Below are positions 5,457 to 63,880 of a stretch of 64,000 nt of DNA, piece after piece. How positions within the stretch are numbered: the first letter of the stretch is position 1; every line of letters begins with the position of its first letter. The stretch lies in sequence record NC_052661.1; one strand, 5' to 3'. The notes under the pieces are model-generated. The model was not told the origin of the DNA. It made no database searches and worked only from the letters and a program-made list of their open reading frames with translations. The translations under genes were made by a program, and so were the position numbers. This DNA is from Escherichia phage ukendt.

Positions 5457-5840
5457 ATGAGCAATATCATCAACCTGGCAGCGACTGTAAACGGTAAAGA
5501 CTTTAACGGCGCTGTAGACCGTGATCCTATGTGGTGCTTGTCAGTGTTTAAAGGTGACTTGGTTGAAGTTAGAACAACCGAAGGGTATAGCGATGATTAT
5601 AAATGCGAGATCCATTTACATAACTGGTACACGGGTAAAACTTATGCGCTGAATCATGCGTTTATCGGCAAGGTTGAATATAGAGAAATGATCGACGATG
5701 AAACGGGGCAGGATTTTAGCGAAAACGTTTATATTCGTTCCGAGACATTAGCCGAACGTTTGATCGAGAAAATGAAAGCAAAAAATAAAATTAATTTATC
5801 TCATTGGATTGATATAACAAACGATCCAGCTTATCAGTAA
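5457..5840 (+). CDS. hypothetical protein (127 aa)
   Basis: In-frame ATG after RBS aacgaggaatcacc; track ORF from 5382 would span the promoter. Confidence 0.55.
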   Translation: MSNIINLAATVNGKDFNGAVDRDPMWCLSVFKGDLVEVRTTEGYSDDYKCEIHLHNWYTGKTYALNHAFIGKVEYREMIDDETGQDFSENVYIRSETLAERLIEKMKAKNKINLSHWIDITNDPAYQ

Positions 5841-5856
5841 ATAACATTTCATACCA

Positions 5857-5882
5857 GGGCGCACAAAGCGCCCTTTCTTTTT
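5857..5882 (+). terminator. rho-independent terminator, same sequence as 1232-1257
   Basis: GGGCGC-ACAAA-GCGCCC plus TTTCTTTTT. Confidence 0.7.
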
Positions 5883-5889
5883 GCCCGAA

Positions 5890-7370
5890 CAATGTTGATA
5901 GCTTTCGCCTATGAAAAACCGACACAGAACAAAACTGAATAAATCACGGTATCAAGCTAATCGACCATTAAACGAATAACCATACATCCCAGGGCAACAG
6001 GCTGTTAGAGAGCTATTTAGAGCGGTTAAAATCGATCAACAACCAACAACAAACCATCAAAAACACCCTTTTACCTCCTTTCTAGTGCAATGATAACCAT
6101 TATCATCTACCCATGATTATCTATGCAATATAAGCGCATAATTATAATGTTGATAATAGTTCGCAACAACTAACCAACAAACAACATAAAACAATAAGCA
6201 AACTAATCATAATCAAAGGAATAATAGCAAGATGATTGATAACGACAAACAATCAAACCATGATGAATACTAAGCAAAACAACGATAACACGACAAAACA
6301 ACCAACTAACGAACAATAACAAACGAAACCATTAAAATAACAACTATTAGCAAAATAGTGCCTAAATGAAATCATTACAAAACGAATCATTCACAGGATC
6401 ATCATTAGCACGCTATGCCGGACACATAGCGAGCTAATAATAAGCCAACTACACCCCAACAATCATAACCATCGGTGACGGTTATTTCTTGTTACTGCGT
6501 AGCTTGCAATAATTGCAAGCGTAATGACGCTTACACTTATTGCGCTGGCTTATTATTAGCATTATATGTAATTACCAAGATCATAACATTAGCGCAATAA
6601 CAATAATCATTGTGGTAATTACAAGATGAAATCATTAGCAAGATGAATAATTGCACGTAGCAACATGAGCGAATAGCGACAGGTTGCATAGTGTGCACAT
6701 AGTGTATAAACATACAAGAAAATAAAGGCTAATCTTTTGGGGGCGAATACTATCGCGTAGCGATATGTTGAGCACCTTCTCTTAAACGTAAATAAAATCA
6801 GAAAATTCTTGATTTATTTTAGTTTTTATGTTAATAAACGTTTAAATAATAATCATTCTCATATAAATAATAGTCTGCTTGTCATGAGCGGGATTAGTTG
6901 ACAATGTTCCGTCATATGATGAAGTTGCCAAACCATTGATAAATAAGTGTTTGTGTGATTTATAATCAAGTGGCCCACCTTGTCGCTATGTTGGCATGAG
7001 CCTTGCATAAGTCATTGAATACGAATGATAATTATTCTCATTCGCATGATATTTGGGAATTGTCGCTGCGTGGACCTGACGGCCCGAAAATTCGCGTTAA
7101 GCACTTCTTACGTATGCGCCATGATTTTTGCCATATGATATTGATTCTATTAGATATTCTTGCCATGAAACAAGGTGTGTCGAAATAATCTCTCCCCGTA
7201 GATATTTTGGGTTACTTTTTATACAAGAGTGGGGTGTCAAAAATAATCGGTATATATGGGATAATTGATAGGAATCCCCTATGGTAATTCGATTGTAATT
7301 CCTTAAGATTGATCGTATGATGTTGGTGATTGATGATTGCCATGAAAGATGGCTAACGATGAGAGGAGAT
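5890..7370. other. 1.5-kb ORF-free region: A+C-skewed tract (about 5930-6430), 19-bp palindrome GCTTGCAATAATTGCAAGC (6503-6521), ATCATTAGCA-like direct repeats
   Basis: no ORF with RBS; strong strand compositional asymmetry; palindromes and repeats read directly. Confidence 0.5.
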
Positions 7371-7374
7371 TGTC

Positions 7375-7749
7375 ATGCAAGAGAGTAAAAATATTCCGTT
7401 GAGTAGTGCAACATTGCTTCGCTTCTATAAAGCATGGATTGCCAACTATCCTGCAATGAATCGCACAACGAGTGGCTTATGTGGTTGTCTGGTAGATTAT
7501 GTAGATGATTTTGTTGGTGAGACAACTAGAGAAGAAGATAGAAGATGGCGTGATCATTTGTTGGACCGTTTGAAATATGAAATGAGGAAACAATTTACAT
7601 GTGCAGGGCTGGACTACAATCTTCCGTTCAATGCAGATTGCATGGATTACCTTTCAGAGTGTATAAACTTGGCGTGTCATACCAACACGTTACGTCTTCA
7701 ATGGGTGAAAGATCGGATTGAAGATGCAAATAATGCTTGCATTGAATAA
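7375..7749 (+). CDS. hypothetical protein, member 1 of WVKDR paralog family
   Basis: ORF track; RBS gagaggag; shares FY..W...GLC....PF....WVKDRI pattern with 11626, 14846, 18145, 19450. Confidence 0.6.
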   Translation: MQESKNIPLSSATLLRFYKAWIANYPAMNRTTSGLCGCLVDYVDDFVGETTREEDRRWRDHLLDRLKYEMRKQFTCAGLDYNLPFNADCMDYLSECINLACHTNTLRLQWVKDRIEDANNACIE

Positions 7750-20542: not shown

Positions 20543-20745
20543 AAGCTTTTGCTATATACTCTACTGTAGGATTCTTTTATTGGATTATAGTTATTGTTGG
20601 ATGTTGGTTAGGTTCTTCTGTTGTGATGGGAGAATGGTTAACATACAATGTATTTGAATGGGATGTATTTTGTAGATCATTACTTGTTATATGGACTGTT
20701 ATTGTTTGTTGGATAACTGTTAGTCTAACATTAGATCTATACTGA
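20536..20745 (+). CDS. hypothetical membrane protein (69 aa)
   Basis: ORF track; two hydrophobic segments. Confidence 0.5.
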   Translation: MLKAFAIYSTVGFFYWIIVIVGCWLGSSVVMGEWLTYNVFEWDVFCRSLLVIWTVIVCWITVSLTLDLY

Positions 20746-20749
20746 TTAA

Positions 20750-21100
20750 TAGATGGTAGATAGATGATTATAGTTTATCTACCTTCACTTACGTTTCATA
20801 CCTCACTATCGTGAGTAACATGAAACATTATTATATAGAAATCTACTACTCGCTATCGCTCGTAAACATATGTTTAGGGTACCATATTTTTTTGAAAAAG
20901 TCAATGCTGGTTCACCTATCAATTATGTGTTTAAGATAAGTCTTACCTATCAATCCAATTCTTACTTTATATTACACCCATAGTAAGACTATTCTTATGG
21001 TTATTAATCACCTTCTTCTGTAGAATGTAATTAGATCCTTGACAAACTCACAAAGCTTGTGTTACATTATGTCTCACAGGTGAATAATACCGAACAGGAG
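20750..21100. other. intergenic region with several short inverted repeats (GGTAGATA/TATCTACC, AGTCTTAC/GTAAGACT, CTCAC/GTGAG) and a TTGACA promoter at 21039
   Basis: no ORF; inverted repeats read directly. Confidence 0.45.
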
Positions 21101-39856: not shown

Positions 39857-40849
39857 TTAAATCTTCTCACTCCACCATTGAGGGTTGTTTAAGTACCATT
39901 CAATCGTTGAGTAGAGATCTTGTTCAAATGTAGAGTTTGCACTCCAACCCAGTTCAGACTCTATTTTAGAAGGATTGATTTCATAACGCAAGTCATGTCC
40001 TTTACGATCTTCAACAAAAGTTATCAAGTTGGAAGAAGGGTAGGTTCCTGCTTCTGGATGTACAGCATCCATGTAGTCACAAACCATATAGATGATCTCC
40101 ATATTGGTTTTGGGATTACGTGTTCCAATATTATACGTTTGACCTGGTTCTCCACCTGTTGCCACTTGAAGAATAGCTCGCGCATGATCCTCCACAAAAA
40201 GCCAGTCTCGCACCTGATCGCCTTTACCATACACTGGAATCTTTTTATTCGTCAAGATACTTGTGATGATTTTTGGGATCAGCTTTTCTGGATGTTGATA
40301 AGGTCCAAAGTTATTGGAGCAGTTGGTTATCACAACAGGTAAGTCGTAGGTACGGTGCCAAGCTTTCACAAGATGGTCAGATGCTGCCTTAGACGCACTG
40401 TACGGGCTTGAAGGGGCATAAGCTGTCTCTTCGGTAAAAGGAACGCCAGAGTCTGCCATATCGCCGTACACTTCGTCTGTGGAGACGTGTACGAACATCT
40501 TCAGTTTATTCTTTGGGAGGAGCCTTGCAGCTTCCAATAAATTGTATGTACCAATAATATTGGAGTCGATGAAAGCTCGTGGATTCTTGATAGAATTATC
40601 CACATGACTCTCTGCCGCTAAGTGAATGATGAAATCGGGATTGCACTCTACTACTAAACTTTTGACCTGGGCTTCGTTTGCCAAATCTGTTATACTTAGT
40701 TTAGCGTGAGTGATATCGCCTACATTCTTAATGTCTGCTGCATAGCTCATCTTATCAACGACAAAAACTTCGTTATTGGGATCTTGACAAAGAGAGCGCA
40801 CCACGGCGCTCCCAATAAAACCAAGACCACCTGTTACCAGATAGCGCAT
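39857..40849 (-). CDS. rmlB: dTDP-glucose 4,6-dehydratase
   Basis: [13 protein letters not shown] Rossmann motif and SDR catalytic region. Confidence 0.9.
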
Positions 40850-41690: not shown

Positions 41691-42775
41691 TAGAAGTCAA
41701 GCTCCTCATCATCAGAAAGATCTTTGTTAGCTGAATTCAACTTGTAATTAGTTAACTGAATCTCTTGGGCTGCTGACTGAATCAAATCAGGATTCAACCA
41801 TTTTTCCATCCAAGCTAAAGGACTATGTTTAGGTGCTTTAAACTTGGCTTTCATTTTCAATCGACGATAAATAGGAGCAGCATTGAAATAAACCCACTGT
41901 TTAGACAATTCGGCGTTAAGACCTACAATAAAACGACCTTCACTAAACAGGTAGTCACACCACTGTTCCTCTTGTTCAACAACAGTGTCGAGGATCAAAG
42001 TCAACTCTTCAATATTGTCTTCGTAAATTTTACGCCAAATTGGGTCATGCATCAATGCATCAATTACAGCATAATCCATCTTAACATGCAAGATTTCATC
42101 TAGCATAATTTTCTGGATCAGTTTACAAGCCCCAACAAACAGTTGTTGTTCTGCCATAGCAAAAGTAGCAGAGAAGGAAGATATGAACTGAATACCTTCT
42201 AATCCAATCAGGGCTACCATCCCTTTAAGAATCAGCAATCGAAGTTCATCGTTAGCTTCAATCAATCCTAGAGCATACTTATGACCAGCTTCTTCCAACT
42301 GACCCATGATATCAGCAATGATACCCATACGATTGAAAATTTTATCATTAATCATAATCTGATTGATGACTTCAATTGGATCTGGAGTACATTGACGGAT
42401 TATTTCAGAATATGTTAACGCATGGAGAACTTCCATTTCACTCTGCTTCATCATCATAGCACAGGCTTCATTGTTACTCAAGAATGGAGAGAACAAAGTG
42501 ATGATTGATTTTGCAAGAGAATCATTTTCCCATTGGAACGATAAGTTTTTAATCATAACATCATAGTTGTTTTTAGAACAAGCTACGAAATCTTTACGTG
42601 TCTGATCCAGATTGACTTCATTCTCATCCCAATCTTGTGCTTTTTGAAGTTTGTAGAGTTTATGCATTTCTGGATAAGTTACGTTAACAGAATCAAAAAT
42701 CCCTAATTGTTCTCCTAAAAATACTGGATATTTTCCTGTTTTGTAAACTTCATTGTGTAAATTAATTGCTGCCAT
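41690..42775 (-). CDS. nrdB: ribonucleotide reductase class Ia beta subunit
   Basis: R2-type diiron/tyrosyl region and length. Confidence 0.9.
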   Translation of the reverse strand: MAAINLHNEVYKTGKYPVFLGEQLGIFDSVNVTYPEMHKLYKLQKAQDWDENEVNLDQTRKDFVACSKNNYDVMIKNLSFQWENDSLAKSIITLFSPFLSNNEACAMMMKQSEMEVLHALTYSEIIRQCTPDPIEVINQIMINDKIFNRMGIIADIMGQLEEAGHKYALGLIEANDELRLLILKGMVALIGLEGIQFISSFSATFAMAEQQLFVGACKLIQKIMLDEILHVKMDYAVIDALMHDPIWRKIYEDNIEELTLILDTVVEQEEQWCDYLFSEGRFIVGLNAELSKQWVYFNAAPIYRRLKMKAKFKAPKHSPLAWMEKWLNPDLIQSAAQEIQLTNYKLNSANKDLSDDEELDF

Positions 42776-42796
42776 TTAAAATTCTCCTCAATAAAA

Positions 42797-42810
42797 AGGG
42801 GCCGAAGCCC
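42797..42810 (-). terminator. hairpin GGGGC-CGAA-GCCCC between nrdA and nrdB
   Basis: identical stem-loop followed by T5 in minus sense; possible attenuator. Confidence 0.5.
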
Positions 42811-42819
42811 CTAGTTTCA

Positions 42820-45060
42820 TCACATCTTGCAAGCTTCACAACCACCATCAGAATCTTCTTGTGCTAAAGAATCTGCTGATTTTGTTCTACTATTAAGGTA
42901 ATACAATGACTTACCACCCAGTCTAGCAAAGTTCAAAATAAATTTCATCTCTTCTTTAACTGATAAACGTCCCCCTACCAATTTAGAATAATCTAACCAA
43001 GAATCACAAGAAATTCCTTGGTCCGTAAACTTGGTAAAGATACCATACATTTCTGCAAGATCTTTAGCCGGAGTATCCCAGGCGGACTGGTAAAACATTT
43101 TCAGTTTTTCATAGTCTGGAACAATAAATAATACACTACCTTTCTGACTTTGTTTATACATAATAGTATCACGAACAGGATACAGAGAGTTAGTAGTATT
43201 GCTTACCAAACTGCTGGACTCATTAGGTGCAATAGCAGCCAAGACACTGTTACGGATACCACCTTGTTCAATGATTTCAGCACGTAAGCCTTCCCAGTCC
43301 ATTTTAAGATCAAAATTACCGATACTGTCTACTGTTTTAGCATAAGTGTCAATTGGTAGCCAACCTTGAGGCCATTTGGTTTTATCGATCCATTCCGCAT
43401 TGCCTTTTTCCTTAGCCAGACGCAGAGAGGCTTTTGCCAACCAAAAGTAATGACGTTCTGCAAGTTCATGCATTAATTTTTTAGCATAAGCATCTGAATA
43501 ATTTACAAAATTACTTGCCAAGTAATGCGCTAAGTTTGTAATGCCTACACCAATAGATCTACGTGCTTTAGCAGTTATTTCGTTATGTTTAAATGGATAA
43601 TCCATTGTTTCAATAACGTTGTCAATTGTCAATACAGTGTAGTATGCAACATCCTCATATTCTTCAGGTAAGACACGACCAGCAACAATAGAAGATAAGA
43701 AGCATAAAGCCAATTCTTGATCTTCTGTATTCTCACCAGTAAAGAGATCCGGCATACTGTGGAAAGCTTTAGTTGGTAAGAAGATCTCTTGACACAGGTT
43801 TGATTGATACACCGTATCCAGGAAAGGTGTATGGTTGTTAACGTTGTCAGCAAAGAACATGTAAATACGTCCTGTTTCTGCACGTTGAACAATAATCTCT
43901 GTCAGAAGATCACGAGCCTTAACAAATTTTTTCTTAATGCGACGACGGCTTACTTTGTCATAAACTGCATCAAACTCTTCTTCACTTTTATACAAAGCTT
44001 CATAAAGTTCAGGAGCATCATCACAACTAACTAACATCCAGTCTTCGTTTTTTGCTGCTCGACGCAAGAACGAACGGTTAACAACAATAGAATAATCTAG
44101 TTTGTCTACTCGTTTATCTATAGGTGTTGTTGGATTCTTCAGTCGAATCAGATCGTCGAAGTCTGGTTCAAGTATGGTAAAGGTAACTGTAGCACTACCT
44201 CCACGGCTTGCTTGCTTCGAAGCTCCAACACTATCTTCCATCCATTTCAGATACGGAAGAAGACCACCATGAATAATACGATTATTCTTAACACCTTGAC
44301 CTGTGGCACGAGTTTGAAGATTAACACCAATACCTGCGTTATTCAACGTATACTCATGAGCTAAGTAATTAGCAATGGCTAAAGATTCTGCCGTATCGTC
44401 TGCACGGAATAAACAACAAGACGCACTTCCTTTGATTGGAGTTCGTAGAGTTGTCAGATACGGCGATGGCAGATTAATCTTAAGATCGCTAACATAAGTA
44501 TAAAGTTTTTTAATATCTTCTATACGGCGTTCTTTTGGTTGGATCTCCATAACCTTCATTGCGATACCAATGAAAAGAAACTGTGGAGACTCATGCACCA
44601 CATCGTTTACTGCATCTCGAATAAGATATTTATCTACCATCTGACGTAAAACAGAATAACCATAAGTTAGATTTTTATTATGCTTTACAATCTTACCGAT
44701 TTCTTTGATCTCTTCATCAGTATAATCCATTTTAGCCCAATGTCCACGTTCTACCATATCATGATAAAAGGTATTCAGTGAAGGGATACTGTGGTATCCC
44801 CCATGAGCCTGTTTGTAAATCATACCCAGAAGAAGCCTTCCTGCCATATCACTGTAAGCTTGTGTTTTCTTGTCAATACACGCTGCAATCATTGCTTTAT
44901 GCAGATCACGTGTAGACACACCGTCATAACACCGCTTCACAGCTTCTAATTCAATTTCAGACCAGTTTAGTTTACCTGCTGCAAATTCAGACCACTTGCG
45001 AAGTTTTTCTGGATTAAACTCCTCTGTCTTACCGTTAGATTTAGTTACAAAACGAATCAA
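42820..45060 (-). CDS. nrdA: ribonucleotide reductase class Ia alpha subunit
   Basis: N-terminal ATP-cone, SNLCQEI catalytic motif, 746 aa. Confidence 0.9.
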   Translation of the reverse strand: MIRFVTKSNGKTEEFNPEKLRKWSEFAAGKLNWSEIELEAVKRCYDGVSTRDLHKAMIAACIDKKTQAYSDMAGRLLLGMIYKQAHGGYHSIPSLNTFYHDMVERGHWAKMDYTDEEIKEIGKIVKHNKNLTYGYSVLRQMVDKYLIRDAVNDVVHESPQFLFIGIAMKVMEIQPKERRIEDIKKLYTYVSDLKINLPSPYLTTLRTPIKGSASCCLFRADDTAESLAIANYLAHEYTLNNAGIGVNLQTRATGQGVKNNRIIHGGLLPYLKWMEDSVGASKQASRGGSATVTFTILEPDFDDLIRLKNPTTPIDKRVDKLDYSIVVNRSFLRRAAKNEDWMLVSCDDAPELYEALYKSEEEFDAVYDKVSRRRIKKKFVKARDLLTEIIVQRAETGRIYMFFADNVNNHTPFLDTVYQSNLCQEIFLPTKAFHSMPDLFTGENTEDQELALCFLSSIVAGRVLPEEYEDVAYYTVLTIDNVIETMDYPFKHNEITAKARRSIGVGITNLAHYLASNFVNYSDAYAKKLMHELAERHYFWLAKASLRLAKEKGNAEWIDKTKWPQGWLPIDTYAKTVDSIGNFDLKMDWEGLRAEIIEQGGIRNSVLAAIAPNESSSLVSNTTNSLYPVRDTIMYKQSQKGSVLFIVPDYEKLKMFYQSAWDTPAKDLAEMYGIFTKFTDQGISCDSWLDYSKLVGGRLSVKEEMKFILNFARLGGKSLYYLNSRTKSADSLAQEDSDGGCEACKM

Positions 45061-45076
45061 CTTCTCCTCCCTATTA

Positions 45077-45331
45077 TTAATGCATATTCAAAACATCTAC
45101 ATCATAACCGAACTTCATTTCATTAAAAAGTCCATTAGCATATAGAAAACCTTCAAAATGAGTTATGTCATCAAACCCTTTTGCTTTTGCTCGACGGTCT
45201 GCTTCTTGTCTTTTAGGAGATAAACGTTTTGAAGTGTCTAGAATTACAGTTACATTACAACCAACAGTTTCATCAAAATAGACTTCGATTTCACAGCCTT
45301 CATATTTATTATCAGTCATTGTCCCTCTCAT
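45077..45331 (-). CDS. hypothetical protein (84 aa)
   Basis: ORF track. Confidence 0.5.
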   Translation of the reverse strand: MRGTMTDNKYEGCEIEVYFDETVGCNVTVILDTSKRLSPKRQEADRRAKAKGFDDITHFEGFLYANGLFNEMKFGYDVDVLNMH

Positions 45332-45739
45332 TGATTAGTATCATCTGCTTTCGCAGGATCATAAGAGTTACCGAAATCATCCATCTTAATATGTGACGCA
45401 CCCCAACCTGTAAATTCTTCATCACCAAAATGAAAAATATCATTTTCTTGATAGATTCGTTTAAAACCACAATTAGGTGAAACAGGGAAAGTGAAAAGCG
45501 TTGTATTTGCAAACACTACTCGCTTATCGTTATTGCTTCGGATATTCACATTACGCTCAACAGAATAGTGTGAATCTTCAGCCATACCCAGCATTACAAG
45601 CGACGCTCTAATAACAGCATTTTGTTTCTCGTGTGGGATATTACCATTGTGTTTATTTGATTCTAGTTTCCAGATAGGGGTAGACATTACAGTAGACATG
45701 CTTACGGTAGCCCAAGTTGTAGTATTTACTAATGACATA
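45328..45739 (-). CDS. hypothetical protein (136 aa)
   Basis: Start at MSLVNT after RBS aaggagaaaat. Confidence 0.5.
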
Positions 45740-59486: not shown

Positions 59487-59679
59487 TTACTACCTCCATA
59501 CGATCTAAAAAGTCATTCACAAATCTCCAGTAACGTTGACCTGTTCTAAGATCTTCATAGATAACCACAGGATCAAACACTTTAGATATTCCGGCAGGTT
59601 TTGGAAATTCCACTACCGTATATAAACCACCTTTTGCTACACAAGAATAGGTTACGCCTGTAATTGGATAGTTGCTCAT
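59440..59679 (-). CDS. hypothetical protein (79 aa)
   Basis: ORF track. Confidence 0.45.
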   Translation of the reverse strand: MSNYPITGVTYSCVAKGGLYTVVEFPKPAGISKVFDPVVIYEDLRTGQRYWRFVNDFLDRMEVVSGENTEEVIKAKERY

Positions 59680-59870
59680 TTCTTTACGTACTCCATGATT
59701 GGGGTATGGTCGCCAGTAAGTGTAACACGGCTGTAGGACACATCTTGTGTCTTCAGTGTATCAATCCACTCTAAGAAGTGTTCTTTCGCTTCTGTGTAGT
59801 TCTGTGTGCCTTTAACAACGTGTATACCATCTAGAGTTACACGGAATACCATTTGAATAACGTCTTTCAT
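59676..59870 (-). CDS. hypothetical protein (64 aa)
   Basis: ORF track. Confidence 0.45.
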   Translation of the reverse strand: MKDVIQMVFRVTLDGIHVVKGTQNYTEAKEHFLEWIDTLKTQDVSYSRVTLTGDHTPIMEYVKK

Positions 59871-59983
59871 TTCTTACCTCCTTTGTTGTCAAAATAACTT
59901 ACCAGAACATCGTGAACCACACACATGGCAAAAATCAGAACAATTGTTGTCAGGACTGGATTCTCACTAATTAGTGCTATCAT
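59867..59983 (-). CDS. hypothetical small membrane peptide
   Basis: Internal Met start chosen to limit overlap with upstream gene. Confidence 0.3.
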   Translation of the reverse strand: MIALISENPVLTTIVLIFAMCVVHDVLVSYFDNKGGKK

Positions 59984-60290
59984 CTTTAACCACCTCCAAT
60001 TGCCTTTCGAGTTTGACTTTGTTTGAGAACTGATAATGACACAACTTACATTGCATGTCAACAATCTGATCGTGATTTAACCCTACAATTTTAACTTCCT
60101 TTGCACCATCCCATTCCAAATACTCAAAGCCATCCAAATGATTACTCTTGTCCAACAGGAATGCTATCTGCTGCCATTCAATCTGAATATCATTTAAATG
60201 ATATGCTGCACAGAAGATATCCTCATAGTAAAAGACGACCATTGTCATTGCTTCGTCCAGTACAACTACCTCTTGTCTTGTAAATCTCAT
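59967..60290 (-). CDS. hypothetical protein (107 aa), first gene of minus-strand block
   Basis: ORF track. Confidence 0.5.
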   Translation of the reverse strand: MRFTRQEVVVLDEAMTMVVFYYEDIFCAAYHLNDIQIEWQQIAFLLDKSNHLDGFEYLEWDGAKEVKIVGLNHDQIVDMQCKLCHYQFSNKVKLERQLEVVKDDSTN

Positions 60291-60299
60291 TCTAGCCTC

Positions 60300-60770
60300 C
60301 TAAACGCGTCTCTGACGCACTTTTTATATATAAGATGATAAATCACCTTACCTAGTAAGTAAACTTGCTCTACGAGCCTCTTATGAAGCTTATGTTATAG
60401 GCTATACTATTGCTACCTGTTTAAGCAAGGTTTTTGCACACAGAAAATAATTTTTAATAAAACTCTTGACTTTTGTGTTCGAAGTATGCTACCCTAGAAA
60501 TCTATTAACGAGCGAAGCGAGTTAAGGTTTTAGGTTGTTGATGTAGTACTCTGTACTCAAGTACTGTACTCCGTACTAGATTAATAATTATTAAATATTA
60601 ATAATAAATAATTATTAGATCTAACAAACAGGTACAGTGTATCAGAACTGGTACGTACAGATCAACTTCTATCAATTAAAAAATAAAATAATAAATTATT
60701 ATAAATAATACTTGATCTATAGATCAGTATGAAGTATAGTACGGAACATCTTAACAAGAATGGAGGTGTG
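60300..60770. other. divergent intergenic control region with GTACT repeat cluster (60544-60577) and AT-only palindromes (60581-60618)
   Basis: no ORFs; GTACT occurs 5 times in 34 bp; TTAATAATTATTAA is a perfect palindrome. Confidence 0.5.
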
Positions 60771-60772
60771 CA

Positions 60773-60958
60773 ATGATTAGTGAGAATCCGTGCAAATGGC
60801 ATCATGTGCCTATTAAAGATTGTATGTCTTGTAATCCACGTTCTATTTATAACATTGCATCTTATGATGATGACAATGTGTTAGACGATGATGAAGGCTG
60901 GGAGGATTTAGATTGGACTGGTTATGAAACCAAAAAGGATAAAATTATTCCTAGTTGA
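60773..60958 (+). CDS. hypothetical protein (61 aa)
   Basis: ORF track; RBS gaatggaggtgtgca. Confidence 0.5.
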   Translation: MISENPCKWHHVPIKDCMSCNPRSIYNIASYDDDNVLDDDEGWEDLDWTGYETKKDKIIPS

Positions 60959-60995
60959 CTTAAGATATCCTTCGTGCTAAACTAGAAATGAGGAG

Positions 60996-61247
60996 ATGCC
61001 GATCACTCCCCATTTGGGGTTCGAAGGATATATGCAAAATAGCTTTTATTTTAGGTGCCGTGCTTGTAATAGGCATTTGACAAACCACTCCAGACGTGAT
61101 AAAAATGGAGTCATCAAGGAATCAGACCTCTGTTCTATTTGCACAGGTTTGGCTTTTGATGATAGTCCCGAAAGGGTTTATCAGCATCAATGTATAACAG
61201 ACGTTCTCGTGTCAAACTTGGTAGAGGACGAACAACTAACAGATTAG
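60996..61247 (+). CDS. hypothetical zinc-finger protein (83 aa)
   Basis: ORF track; CRACNRH...CSIC. Confidence 0.5.
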   Translation: MPITPHLGFEGYMQNSFYFRCRACNRHLTNHSRRDKNGVIKESDLCSICTGLAFDDSPERVYQHQCITDVLVSNLVEDEQLTD

Positions 61248-61255
61248 GAGGAACA

Positions 61256-61504
61256 ATGTCTCTATTAGAAAAACACGTGTTTGAAGATGGTAACGGCAAT
61301 GCAGTTTTTCTTTTCCATCCAGAAAAATACACATCTGAAAACAATGGTACAACTTCTATTGTAATCACTAAAGATGTTAAAGTTATTGATTTCTTGGCTC
61401 TGATGCGAGAGATGGATCTTGAAATTAATACTTTTAACGCAGAAGCTTTGGTTGTTGCTCTTCTGGAAAAGAAAGATAGTGAAGAAGTAGCAGAATATGC
61501 TTAA
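61256..61504 (+). CDS. hypothetical protein (82 aa)
   Basis: In-frame ATG after RBS attaggaggaaca. Confidence 0.5.
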   Translation: MSLLEKHVFEDGNGNAVFLFHPEKYTSENNGTTSIVITKDVKVIDFLALMREMDLEINTFNAEALVVALLEKKDSEEVAEYA

Positions 61505-61512
61505 ATAACTAT

Positions 61513-61542
61513 TGACAAACGTATCCTTCATATGTTAGGATA
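61513..61542 (+). promoter_or_regulatory. promoter TTGACA with TG-n-TAGGAT, upstream of tRNA cluster
   Basis: -35 61513-61518; same TATGTTA(R)GAT architecture as 62100 and 63828. Confidence 0.5.
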
Positions 61543-61751
61543 CGTTCATCAAGTGTGGTAACAGGGTCGTTGACTTTTGTTAAGAGAGGCTTGCACTGCG
61601 GATAGTGTTAGAGACTACTTCTTCAGAGGTTAGCTACCAAAGAGGAAAAGGAATAGTCTCGGCTCAAGAACTTTTACGCTGAAAGTTGGGCTTGGTCTTA
61701 GAGAATGTAGCGGTTCTCTACAATCGTCAGCGTCTCTGTTACCACATTTAT

Positions 61752-61823
61752 GGCCCTGTAGCTCAATGGGAGAGCTGTCGGCTCATAACCGATAGGTAGC
61801 TGGATCGAAACCAGCCAGGGCCA
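61752..61823 (+). tRNA. tRNA, anticodon CAT (elongator Met or lysidine-modified Ile2)
   Basis: cloverleaf folded by eye; anticodon loop CUCAUAA; T-arm GCTGG-ATCGAAA-CCAGC; CCA encoded. Confidence 0.75.
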
Positions 61824-61828
61824 CCAAC

Positions 61829-61900
61829 GTCTTTATGGTGTAATGGATAGCACAGGAGTCTTCTAAACTCTTAGTCAAGGTTCGATTCCTTGTAAAGACA
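61829..61900 (+). tRNA. tRNA-Arg (anticodon TCT)
   Basis: acceptor GTCTTTA/TAAAGAC; loop CTTCTAA; T-loop TTCGATT. Confidence 0.75.
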
Positions 61901-62099
61901 CCAGAACATTTTAACATGAATTAGCTCAAGTGATTTGAACCCACTACTGATCATGGTGGCAGAGAATGAGGTAAGTATGTCAGACATTATAAACAAAGGC
62001 CACGGTTATATTAGAAGACATAAATGCTCGAAGAGCACCGTTCGCTGAGAACGGGGGTTGGTGGAGTCACCATTCATGGTAAAATGTTTTAAAAAACTA

Positions 62100-62128
62100 T
62101 TGACAACTAACACTATTTTATGTTAGAT
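62100..62128 (+). promoter_or_regulatory. promoter TTGACA-N17-TTAGAT inside tRNA cluster
   Basis: hexamers 62100-62105 and 62123-62128, immediately before tRNA-Ser. Confidence 0.5.
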
Positions 62129-62137
62129 TATAAGCAT

Positions 62138-63827: not shown

Positions 63828-63855
63828 ACTTGACTTATTATTTTTTATATGTTAA
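63828..63855 (+). promoter_or_regulatory. promoter TTGACT with TG-n-TAAGAT
   Basis: same architecture as 61513 and 62100; followed by RBS aggagg and ATG 63881. Confidence 0.5.
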
Positions 63856-63880
63856 GATAAAGTTTAGGAGGATTTTATTA

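Follow-up and report, generated by a model that had tools for sequence, protein, structure and literature searches.

A probable divergent early control region with lineage-specific GTACT and AT-only repeats in a phAPEC8-like phage of Escherichia coli

Strong sigma-70 promoters, such as rrnB P1 and the T4 early promoters, are accompanied by UP elements or AT-rich upstream regions, and the temperate phages 186 and P22 carry face-to-face promoters or antisense pairs (pR/pL in coliphage 186, Pant/Psar in P22). At the T7 primary origin of replication, the promoters phi1.1A/B precede an AT-rich stretch of 61 bp, and T4 oriF and oriG combine a middle promoter with a downstream unwinding element. Iterons, as found in the lambda ori, phage P1 oriR, and plasmid origins, are 17–22 bp long, lie in helical phase, are conserved, and adjoin the gene of their initiator. 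For the myovirus rV5, four transcription blocks with two divergent and two convergent points were described, together with host sigma-70-type promoters, many of which have an extended -10, and with GC-skew changes that coincide with changes in gene orientation (PMC3606486). At one divergent point of rV5, the bidirectional promoters that had been expected were not found (PMC3606486). The phAPEC8-like phage analyzed here resembles rV5, a member of a different subfamily, in its four-block architecture, its predicted host sigma-70 promoters, and the match between GC skew and gene orientation; however, the leader box of promoter P1, the face-to-face promoter PL2, the GTACT array, and the AT-only tracts presented below are not described in the rV5 paper (PMC3606486). 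Phapecoctaviruses are used in phage-therapy cocktails, and our search of the literature on Phapecoctavirus promoters, origins, and transcriptomes found nothing specific.

The window, that is, the whole analyzed stretch of 64,000 nucleotides, was placed by comparison with GenBank, in which about 60 Phapecoctavirus genomes matched the region and its flanks at 95–99% identity. Relatives within this genus (Stephanstirmvirinae) include phAPEC8, ESCO13, and nepoznato, and by its sequence the window is assignable to a Phapecoctavirus, a phAPEC8-like myovirus of E. coli. Genes in the window lie on the plus strand up to 23.2 kb, on the minus strand from 23.3 to 60.29 kb, and again on the plus strand from 60773, where they lead to an array of ten tRNA genes. 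Between the minus-strand gene start at 60290 and the plus-strand gene start at 60773, no ORF of at least 40 amino acids was present on coding-consistent strands; the stretch from 60291 to 60772 is empty of ORFs, as an earlier note on this DNA had claimed. The genes of 536P1, a complete and near-identical genome of 149.5 kb, form four blocks and hence two divergent and two convergent points, and of the two divergent points the region studied here is the larger; among the ORF-free gaps of that genome it ranks second in size. Our main reading, which we consider probable at roughly 60%, is that a Phapecoctavirus has its major divergent control region for early transcription here, and that slippage within the phAPEC8-like lineage added the GTACT array and AT tract 1. 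The features of the region, in window coordinates, are as follows.

60306–60318, minus strand: small stem-loop, GCGTC-TCT-GACGC, within the 5′ leader that precedes the start codon (60290) of the first minus-strand gene.
60335–60363, minus strand: PL, TTTACT-17-TATCAT, a predicted sigma-70-like promoter from a consensus scan, next to the minus-strand genes.
60466–60495, plus strand: P1, TTGACT-N15-TGcTACCCT, a strong predicted extended -10 promoter with a predicted start near 60502–60504.
60505–60525, plus strand: leader box, TTAA-CGAGCGAAGCGAG-TTAA, a mini-hairpin about 7 nt into the predicted P1 transcript.
60521–60537, no strand: short tandem unit TTAAGGT(TT), about two copies here.
60545–60578, no strand: GTACT array, five GTACT in a degenerate heptad repeat, GTACTCN.
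60580–60617, no strand: AT tract 1, 38 bp of A/T only, a near-palindrome that contains TTAATAATTATTAA.
60636–60665, minus strand: PL2, TTGATC-N15-TGaTACACT, a predicted extended -10 promoter that faces P1, with a predicted start at about 60629.
60674–60710, no strand: AT tract 2, 37 bp of A/T only, between the -35 elements of PL2 and P2.
60712–60740, plus strand: P2, TTGATC-17-TATAGT, a promoter-like site from a consensus scan, just 5′ of the first plus-strand gene.
60762–60775, plus strand: ribosome-binding site GGAGG, with the ATG that opens the first plus-strand gene (61 aa, phrog_26411).

None of the ~60 matching GenBank records gives this region a functional annotation. A bare "repeat_region" lies inside it in nepoznato, tuntematon, and anhysbys (five listed records, including RefSeq copies), spanning part of AT tract 2 and P2 in nepoznato and AT tract 1 with neighbouring sequence in anhysbys; all three are phages from Danish wastewater. 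Pfam and PHROGs searches with eight small flanking proteins yielded no informative family and no DNA-binding family, the Rfam 15 covariance models applied to 59500–62000 with E up to 1 returned tRNAs only, and inspection of the region by eye gave no convincing match to DnaA or LexA boxes. The GenBank record of phage nieznany starts inside the region, and a direct terminal repeat of 342 bp is described for a relative, BME3 (Justusliebigvirus; PMC12210895), which could suggest that a physical genome end or packaging site, either a short direct terminal repeat or pac, is located here. We rejected this explanation, which is extremely improbable, on two grounds: the terminal repeat opens the BME3 record, and the first 1.5 kb of that record has its homologue at window positions 5823–7055, outside the region; and the ends of the nieznany record overlap by ~200 bp, one copy carrying an internal deletion, which is an assembly artefact at the AT repeats.

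The evidence for promoter function is statistical in the case of P1. A strict extended -10 pattern (TTGACW, 14–15 nt, TGnTAnnnT), which P1 matches exactly, occurred 12 times in the window against 0.29 expected in shuffles, and 11 of these matches were co-oriented with the local genes, the exception being an antisense paralogue of P1 at 20904. This excess, together with the co-orientation, indicates that the strict promoter class is real and that P1 is a member of it. In our alignment of close relatives, which comprised ten phAPEC8-like genomes, P1 had a single variable column, and P1 and the leader box are both kept in phiWec190 and in Citrobacter phage Tr1. A scan of metagenomes for the P1 -10 element plus the box recovered 34 loci with a complete P1. 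The box itself is built from a GC/GC stem, a G-N-A loop, tandem G·A pairs, and a closing pair, and three copies are present per genome. Its core, CGAGCG/AGCGAG, was identical in 27 distinct sequences, across which the closing pair covaried (C-G in 15, A-U in 8, broken in 4), and the loop N varied among homologues, being A, C, T, G, or two bases. Sequences of the type d(GCGNAGC) form GNA-loop mini-hairpins, and the box core likewise reads GC-GNA-GC with a free N; unlike these DNA hairpins, the box is probably an RNA element that sits at a transcript's 5′ end, and it is flanked by tandem G·A pairs and a covarying closing pair. The presence of the box in unrelated viruses was set aside, given that the seven IMG/VR matches to a 17-base pattern were close to chance.

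The loose promoter scan was not enriched over shuffles (9 against 8.3), and PL, PL2, and P2, as predicted promoters, rest on conservation rather than statistics. PL was invariant in the ten relatives; phiWec190 retains its -10 region (GATGATAAATCACC), and Tr1 does so for the most part. The stem-loop at 60306–60318 was also invariant in the ten relatives, and Tr1 has GCTC-TCTGT-GAGC at this position, so that the stem is kept with different letters. The hexamers of PL2 were invariant or nearly so among the same genomes. In a search for PL2 equivalents that allowed two mismatches in the -35, a minus-strand extended -10 promoter, for example TTGACT-N15-TGATACATT, lay 163–166 bp from the P1 -35 in 10 of 12 loci of other lineages; the corresponding P1-to-PL2 distance is 200 bp in the phAPEC8-like lineage, which also has a second AT run. 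The -35 of P2 was invariant among the relatives and its -10 read TACAGT in most of them, and the P2 position is taken by TTGACT-N15-TGTTAGAGT in phiWec190 and by TTGACC...TATAGT in Tr1, a rightward promoter of the P2 type being present in the lineages inspected. P2 also overlaps a perfect palindrome, TGATCTATAGATCA (60713–60726).

The ten-genome alignment showed next to no variation in PL and P1, in the core of the box, in AT tract 1, or in the block that carries PL2. In phiWec190, a diverged Phapecoctavirus, and in Tr1, P1 is retained together with its box, as are P2, an AT-rich run, motifs that contain GATC, and an extended -10 element pointing left; the GTACT array and AT tract 1 are missing from both. 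The block between the AT tracts, a mixed sequence with GATC and GTAC sites, carries PL2, and the -35 elements at 60660–60665 (minus strand) and 60712–60717 (plus strand) flank the 37-bp AT-only tract in a back-to-back arrangement that is the same in other lineages. The maintenance of this layout in distant relatives indicates a conserved design, in which P1 faces PL2 and PL2 stands back to back with P2 across an AT-rich spacer. A divergent promoter hub had been one of several functions proposed in the earlier note, and it is this proposal that our data support, through the enrichment of the P1 class (12 against 0.29) and through the conserved positions of P1, PL2, and the AT-rich spacer in distant relatives. 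The sole terminator-like site between 59.5 and 62 kb was the hairpin at 60306–60318, with none after the GTACT array or the AT tracts; an intrinsic terminator at the repeats was rejected, as no GC-rich stem with a T run is found there.

The anatomy, statistics, conservation pattern, and variability of the region are shown by our data, whereas firing of these promoters is inferred. Host sigma-70 RNA polymerase would set out to the right from P1 and P2 and to the left from PL2 and PL, and both early blocks would thereby be opened to transcription. Relative to PL2 as well as to P2, AT tract 2 occupies about -40 to -80, which is the position of a UP-like element or of a bendable spacer common to the two back-to-back promoters, and it may act as such between them. 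It is alike to UP elements in occupying this position, whereas it is longer than a canonical UP element and would serve two promoters. An AT-rich run of 8–47 bp was found at the tract-2-equivalent position in nearly all lineages, and of the two AT tracts, only tract 2 is conserved.

P1 and PL2 face each other at a distance of ~125 bp, and ~125 nt would consequently be transcribed from both strands. The GTACT array and AT tract 1 would be located within this doubly transcribed zone, and interference between P1 and PL2, or antisense pairing of their transcripts, is possible. Convergent promoters ~100–125 bp apart with overlapping transcripts (predicted ones in our case) are likewise found in coliphage 186 pR/pL and P22 Pant/Psar; in contrast to these, the phage here is virulent and has no known repressor, and its promoters are predicted. 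It has to be considered whether P1 yields a short noncoding RNA, containing the box and the GUACU and AU hairpins, complementary, as an antisense, to the initial ~125 nt of the RNA from PL2, so that P1 and PL2 regulate each other by pairing or polymerase collision in the manner of the 186 and P22 pairs. The face-to-face geometry, conserved across lineages, would suit such an RNA element, and the P1 RNA at 60503–60625 folded better than shuffles (z -2.3), particularly in its first 43 nt (z -3.6). The P1 paralogue at 20904 would also give rise to a strongly structured RNA, antisense to plus-strand genes (z -3.5). When the array was folded as RNA, one stem was formed by copies 1 and 5 and another by copies 2 and 4 (-11.7 kcal/mol, z -2.0). 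The outer GUACU stem formed by copies 1 and 5 was retained in 10 of 10 relatives, with a G·U pair in phage KKP 3954, and this retention makes a modest structural role of the array possible. However, the inner stem is disrupted in KKP 3954, no intrinsic terminator beyond the hairpins and no Rfam match were identified, and further P1-plus-box copies immediately precede protein-coding genes, so that an mRNA leader may be all that the cassette is. We regard a regulatory RNA element as unlikely and retain the reading of a divergent early control region.

The GTACT array had first drawn attention as five copies at about 7-bp spacing, and this description was accurate: the copies start at 60546, 60553, 60561, 60566, and 60573, with spacings of 7, 8, 5, and 7 bp (five copies in 32 bp). 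The array can also be read as a diverged 20-bp duplication. It holds 5 of the 18 GTACT present in 64 kb, and 9 of the 72 GTAC sites of the window fall within 60546–60742 (~200 bp). GTAC, which this genome avoids, has an observed/expected ratio of 0.40 and belongs to the four most depleted tetranucleotides (GTAC, GGCC, CCGG, and CTAG; 0.37–0.46), a depletion that makes the cluster more striking, not less. Two checks suggested in the earlier note, enrichment of the motif over shuffled sequence and its recurrence elsewhere, gave clear outcomes: triple GTACT with gaps of 0–3 bp had three matches, all in the array, against 0.00 in 100 shuffles, and the complete genome 536P1 contained no second GTAC cluster, with 10 sites in 200 bp here and 3 in the next best window. 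In IMG/VR, GTACT heptad arrays were found at 79 loci, and the control pentamers GTCAT and CATGT at >120 and 25 loci, respectively. These control counts indicate that heptad arrays of whatever pentamer are common in viral contigs, and GTACT heptad arrays were accordingly rejected as a special recurrent phage motif.

A pentamer that recurs five times within 32 bp against an expectation of zero, a palindromic core, and a location between two facing promoters are what might be expected of an operator, bound by a phage early protein or by a host regulator such as TrpR, that would block or balance P1 and PL2. GNACT is the half-site of TrpR, whose dimer site consists of inverted GNACT half-sites 8 bp apart (PMC9413887). 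A TrpR operator was rejected after a search for GNACT-N8-AGTNC with at most one mismatch, which had no match in 60540–60580 and 11 matches in the window against 19.6 expected. An operator of any kind is very unlikely in our view: the 5–8 bp spacings are out of helical phase, the small flanking proteins are without DNA-binding family matches, and the array is absent in sister lineages, has 3–5 copies in close relatives, and is down to one intact copy in the viable KKP 3954. The proposal of the earlier note that the array represents iterated binding sites for a regulator or initiator protein is not supported, given its absence in sister lineages, variable copy number, and near-erasure in KKP 3954. 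As initiator sites in particular, a 5-bp core at 5–8 bp spacing is unlike iterons. The locus does share with iteron origins the presence of short direct repeats beside an AT-rich stretch with GATC sites; it differs from them in that the 5-bp core recurs at 7, 8, 5, and 7 bp, varies in number, is not conserved among relatives, and appears dispensable. Among the eight small flanking proteins, no initiator was recognised.

Among the ten genomes, the most variable segments were the GTACT array and the TTAAGGT unit. GTACT is present in 5 copies in most genomes, 4 in phAPEC8, 3 in dw-ec (which has a 14-bp deletion), and 1 in KKP 3954, and an extra copy of TTAAGGT was found in UP17 and Ro121lw (7 bp) and in anhysbys (9 bp). 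In KKP 3954, one GTACT is intact and the rest now read ATACT, ATATT, GTCAT, and GTATT, and three more GTAC sites of the region, outside the array, are altered as well. GTAC losses in this phage affected 7 of 10 cluster sites and 8 of 22 aligned flanking sites in a comparison of 40 kb at 97.9% identity, the flanking sites having changed mostly to GTAT or ATAC, and 17 of its 914 substitutions lay in GTAC sites. Sequencing errors linked to methylation are an unlikely source of these losses, as 6 of 8 coding GTAC changes were synonymous, similar to the background (600 synonymous to 242 nonsynonymous), which indicates true substitutions. Since the cluster was not exempt from the GTAC purge in a viable phage, it is not essential that the array consist of GTAC. 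Orthologous regions contained 0–2 GTAC sites in other lineages versus 9–10 in the phAPEC8-like lineage, and the GTACT array and AT tract 1, as judged from these comparisons, are additions specific to the latter.

AT tract 1 contains a period-7 unit, ATTAATA, in 5.6 copies (Tandem Repeats Finder). The palindromy of AT-only sequence reported in the earlier note is real: TTAATAATTATTAA, at 60581–60594, is a perfect palindrome, and the tract overall is a near-palindrome, its 18-nt arms (60582–60599 and 60600–60617) being 89% complementary, which is only modestly beyond chance for AT-only DNA. A 14-bp palindrome is itself not rare within AT-only sequence (~1/128 per position), and the fold of the tract as single-stranded DNA was only modestly above shuffles (z -2.5). 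The three adjoining arrays of ~7-bp units (TTAAGGT, GTACTCN, and ATTAATA) have probably grown by replication slippage in leader DNA that tolerates it, and the GTACT array and AT tract 1 are apparently dispensable simple repeats that at most add hairpins to two overlapping leaders and ease DNA opening. Two observations count against our main reading. A GTAC-rich array inside a GTAC-avoiding genome is odd for neutral DNA, and AT tract 1, absent from phiWec190, Tr1, and other lineages, is nearly invariant in the ten relatives, which for a slippage-prone sequence hints at some constraint.

The AT tracts also raise the question of replication, the earlier note having named a DNA-unwinding element or origin among its candidate functions. 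They are the two longest AT-only runs of the window and of the whole ~150-kb genome, and they include the least stable 40-bp windows genome-wide (z 5.07 for tract 1 and ~4.7 for tract 2); the 150 bp that hold both represent the duplex-stability minimum of the 149.5-kb genome, with a z of 5.07 compared with 3.59 for the next. The site is unique and intergenic, P1 lies 80 bp upstream of AT tract 1, so that a promoter stands directly 5′ of an AT-rich unwinding element, and GATC sites are ~4–5 times denser here in three lineages. Pfam matches in 536P1 to DNA_pol_A and to Toprim_2 plus DnaB_C correspond to a family-A polymerase and a fused Toprim-DnaB primase-helicase, a predicted T7-like replisome that would work without the need of an initiator protein. 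Such features would be compatible with a transcription-activated origin of the T7 primary or T4 oriF/oriG type, in which transcription from P1 (and PL2) would open the AT tracts, an RNA–DNA hybrid would prime the family-A polymerase, and the displaced strand would take up a gp4-like primase-helicase; pause, hairpin, or primase sites might in that case be provided by the GTAC heptads. The locus resembles the T7 and T4 origins in having a strong promoter shortly upstream of an easily melted, AT-rich intergenic stretch, and T7 also in its replisome. It differs from them in that transcription would be carried out by host RNA polymerase, the P1-proximal AT tract is lineage-specific, and the conserved AT tract lies between back-to-back promoters.

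The global cumulative GC-skew minimum at the left edge of the region might appear to strengthen the case for an origin. However, GC skew had the same slope in all four blocks and flipped at each orientation change, which means that it reports transcription direction and is uninformative on the origin, as in rV5 (PMC3606486), and we rejected it as origin evidence. AT tract 1 and the GTACT array are moreover missing in sister lineages, the AT-rich run is just 8–13 bp in some relatives, AT tract 2 lies where a spacer between back-to-back promoters is expected, and our literature search found no experimental origin data for this phage group. A transcription-activated origin is possible but unlikely, and the region is the single best candidate for an origin site. 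A broader and more doubtful conjecture is that the primary origin of phAPEC8/rV5-like phages is made up of P1 with the invariant hairpin of its leader, of PL2 opposite to it, and of the AT-rich zone. P1 RNA would then prime the family-A polymerase at the AT tracts, the PL2 transcript would provide antisense control, and the heptad arrays of the phAPEC8 lineage would tune the ease with which the site opens. If true, the site would parallel the T7 primary origin or ColE1, with host RNA polymerase as its driver.

Collectively, our findings favour the reading of an ordinary phage early control region, previously undescribed, and the result is a predicted promoter map, specific enough to be tested, for the chief region of early control in these phages. 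The GTACT cluster, being apparently dispensable, may offer a safe site for engineering, and the GTAC purge in KKP 3954 presents a clean natural case of ongoing restriction-site avoidance. Of greater interest are two by-products shared by related genera: the P1 leader cassette, a conserved promoter-plus-leader unit with three copies per genome, and the pair of promoters that stand face to face.

The promoter-plus-leader cassette, which joins P1, a predicted rightward extended -10 promoter, to the box, a leader mini-hairpin, has a conserved layout (TGcTACCCTA, short hairpin, CGAGCG-N(1-2)-AGCGAG) and occurs in three copies per genome, as well as at 34 metagenome loci from related phages. The copies are as follows, 536P1 being a complete near-identical genome:

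Window 60487-60525: cassette copy 1
Window 20845-20882, minus strand: cassette copy 2
536P1 genome position ~74749, minus strand: cassette copy 3

Across 27 distinct sequences, the cassette core was unchanged, the loop base varied freely and the closing pair covaried, being C-G in 15 and A-U in 8 of them.

The second copy of P1 and the box (window 20735-20904, minus strand) opposes the surrounding plus-strand genes, and a promoter on the plus strand (21039-21068) is arranged back to back with it. The predicted transcript of this second copy folded at -35 kcal/mol (z, -3.5), with none of 200 shuffles equally good, and an Rfam search of this transcript returned no matches. In a metagenome orthologue (L345), the stems, as read by eye, were apparently kept with changed letters. 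The minus-strand transcript is a candidate antisense or non-coding RNA.

Four tetranucleotides (GTAC, GGCC, CCGG, and CTAG) were depleted across the whole window, at 0.37-0.46 of expectation. In KKP 3954, a viable close relative, GTAC density was halved (0.49 versus 0.92 per kb). The sites were lost by mostly synonymous G-to-A and C-to-T substitutions, and a purge of this restriction site is apparently still under way in that phage. A weaker second concentration of GTAC was noted at window 40350-40548 (5 sites/200 bp), within a 330-aa minus-strand ORF.

Window 5840-7628 comprises 1.8 kb without any ORF of at least 70 aa. The homologue of window 5823-7055 (72-79% identity) is the first 1.5 kb of the Justusliebigvirus BME3, whose record opens with a direct terminal repeat of 342 bp; window 5823-7055 is likely to be the genome-end or packaging region of phage ukendt. 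Beyond the window, 536P1 encodes a family-A DNA polymerase ORF (42387-45719, minus strand; 1110 aa) with a Pfam match limited to residues 845-1009; judging by its sequence, the middle of this ORF may be an insertion, for example an intein or a homing endonuclease.

Among the database records of relatives, GenBank genomes 98-99% identical to this E. coli phage are named after other hosts (Campylobacter phage B15, Acinetobacter phage ABPW7, and Klebsiella phage ZCKP1), and the more distant Pseudomonas phage PsgM04F was also matched under a non-E. coli label. The host labels of these four records look doubtful or a sign of contamination. The ends of the nieznany record overlap, partly collapsed, and fall inside the divergent control region.

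Four further promoters of the strict extended -10 class, all rightward, were predicted to the right of P1, scattered among small ORFs and tRNA genes:

Window 60955-60983: strict extended -10 promoter, rightward
Window 61512-61541: strict extended -10 promoter, rightward
Window 62100-62129: strict extended -10 promoter, rightward
Window 63830-63858: strict extended -10 promoter, rightward

From this interspersed arrangement, we infer that predicted strong promoters, arrayed in tandem, drive the early and tRNA region.
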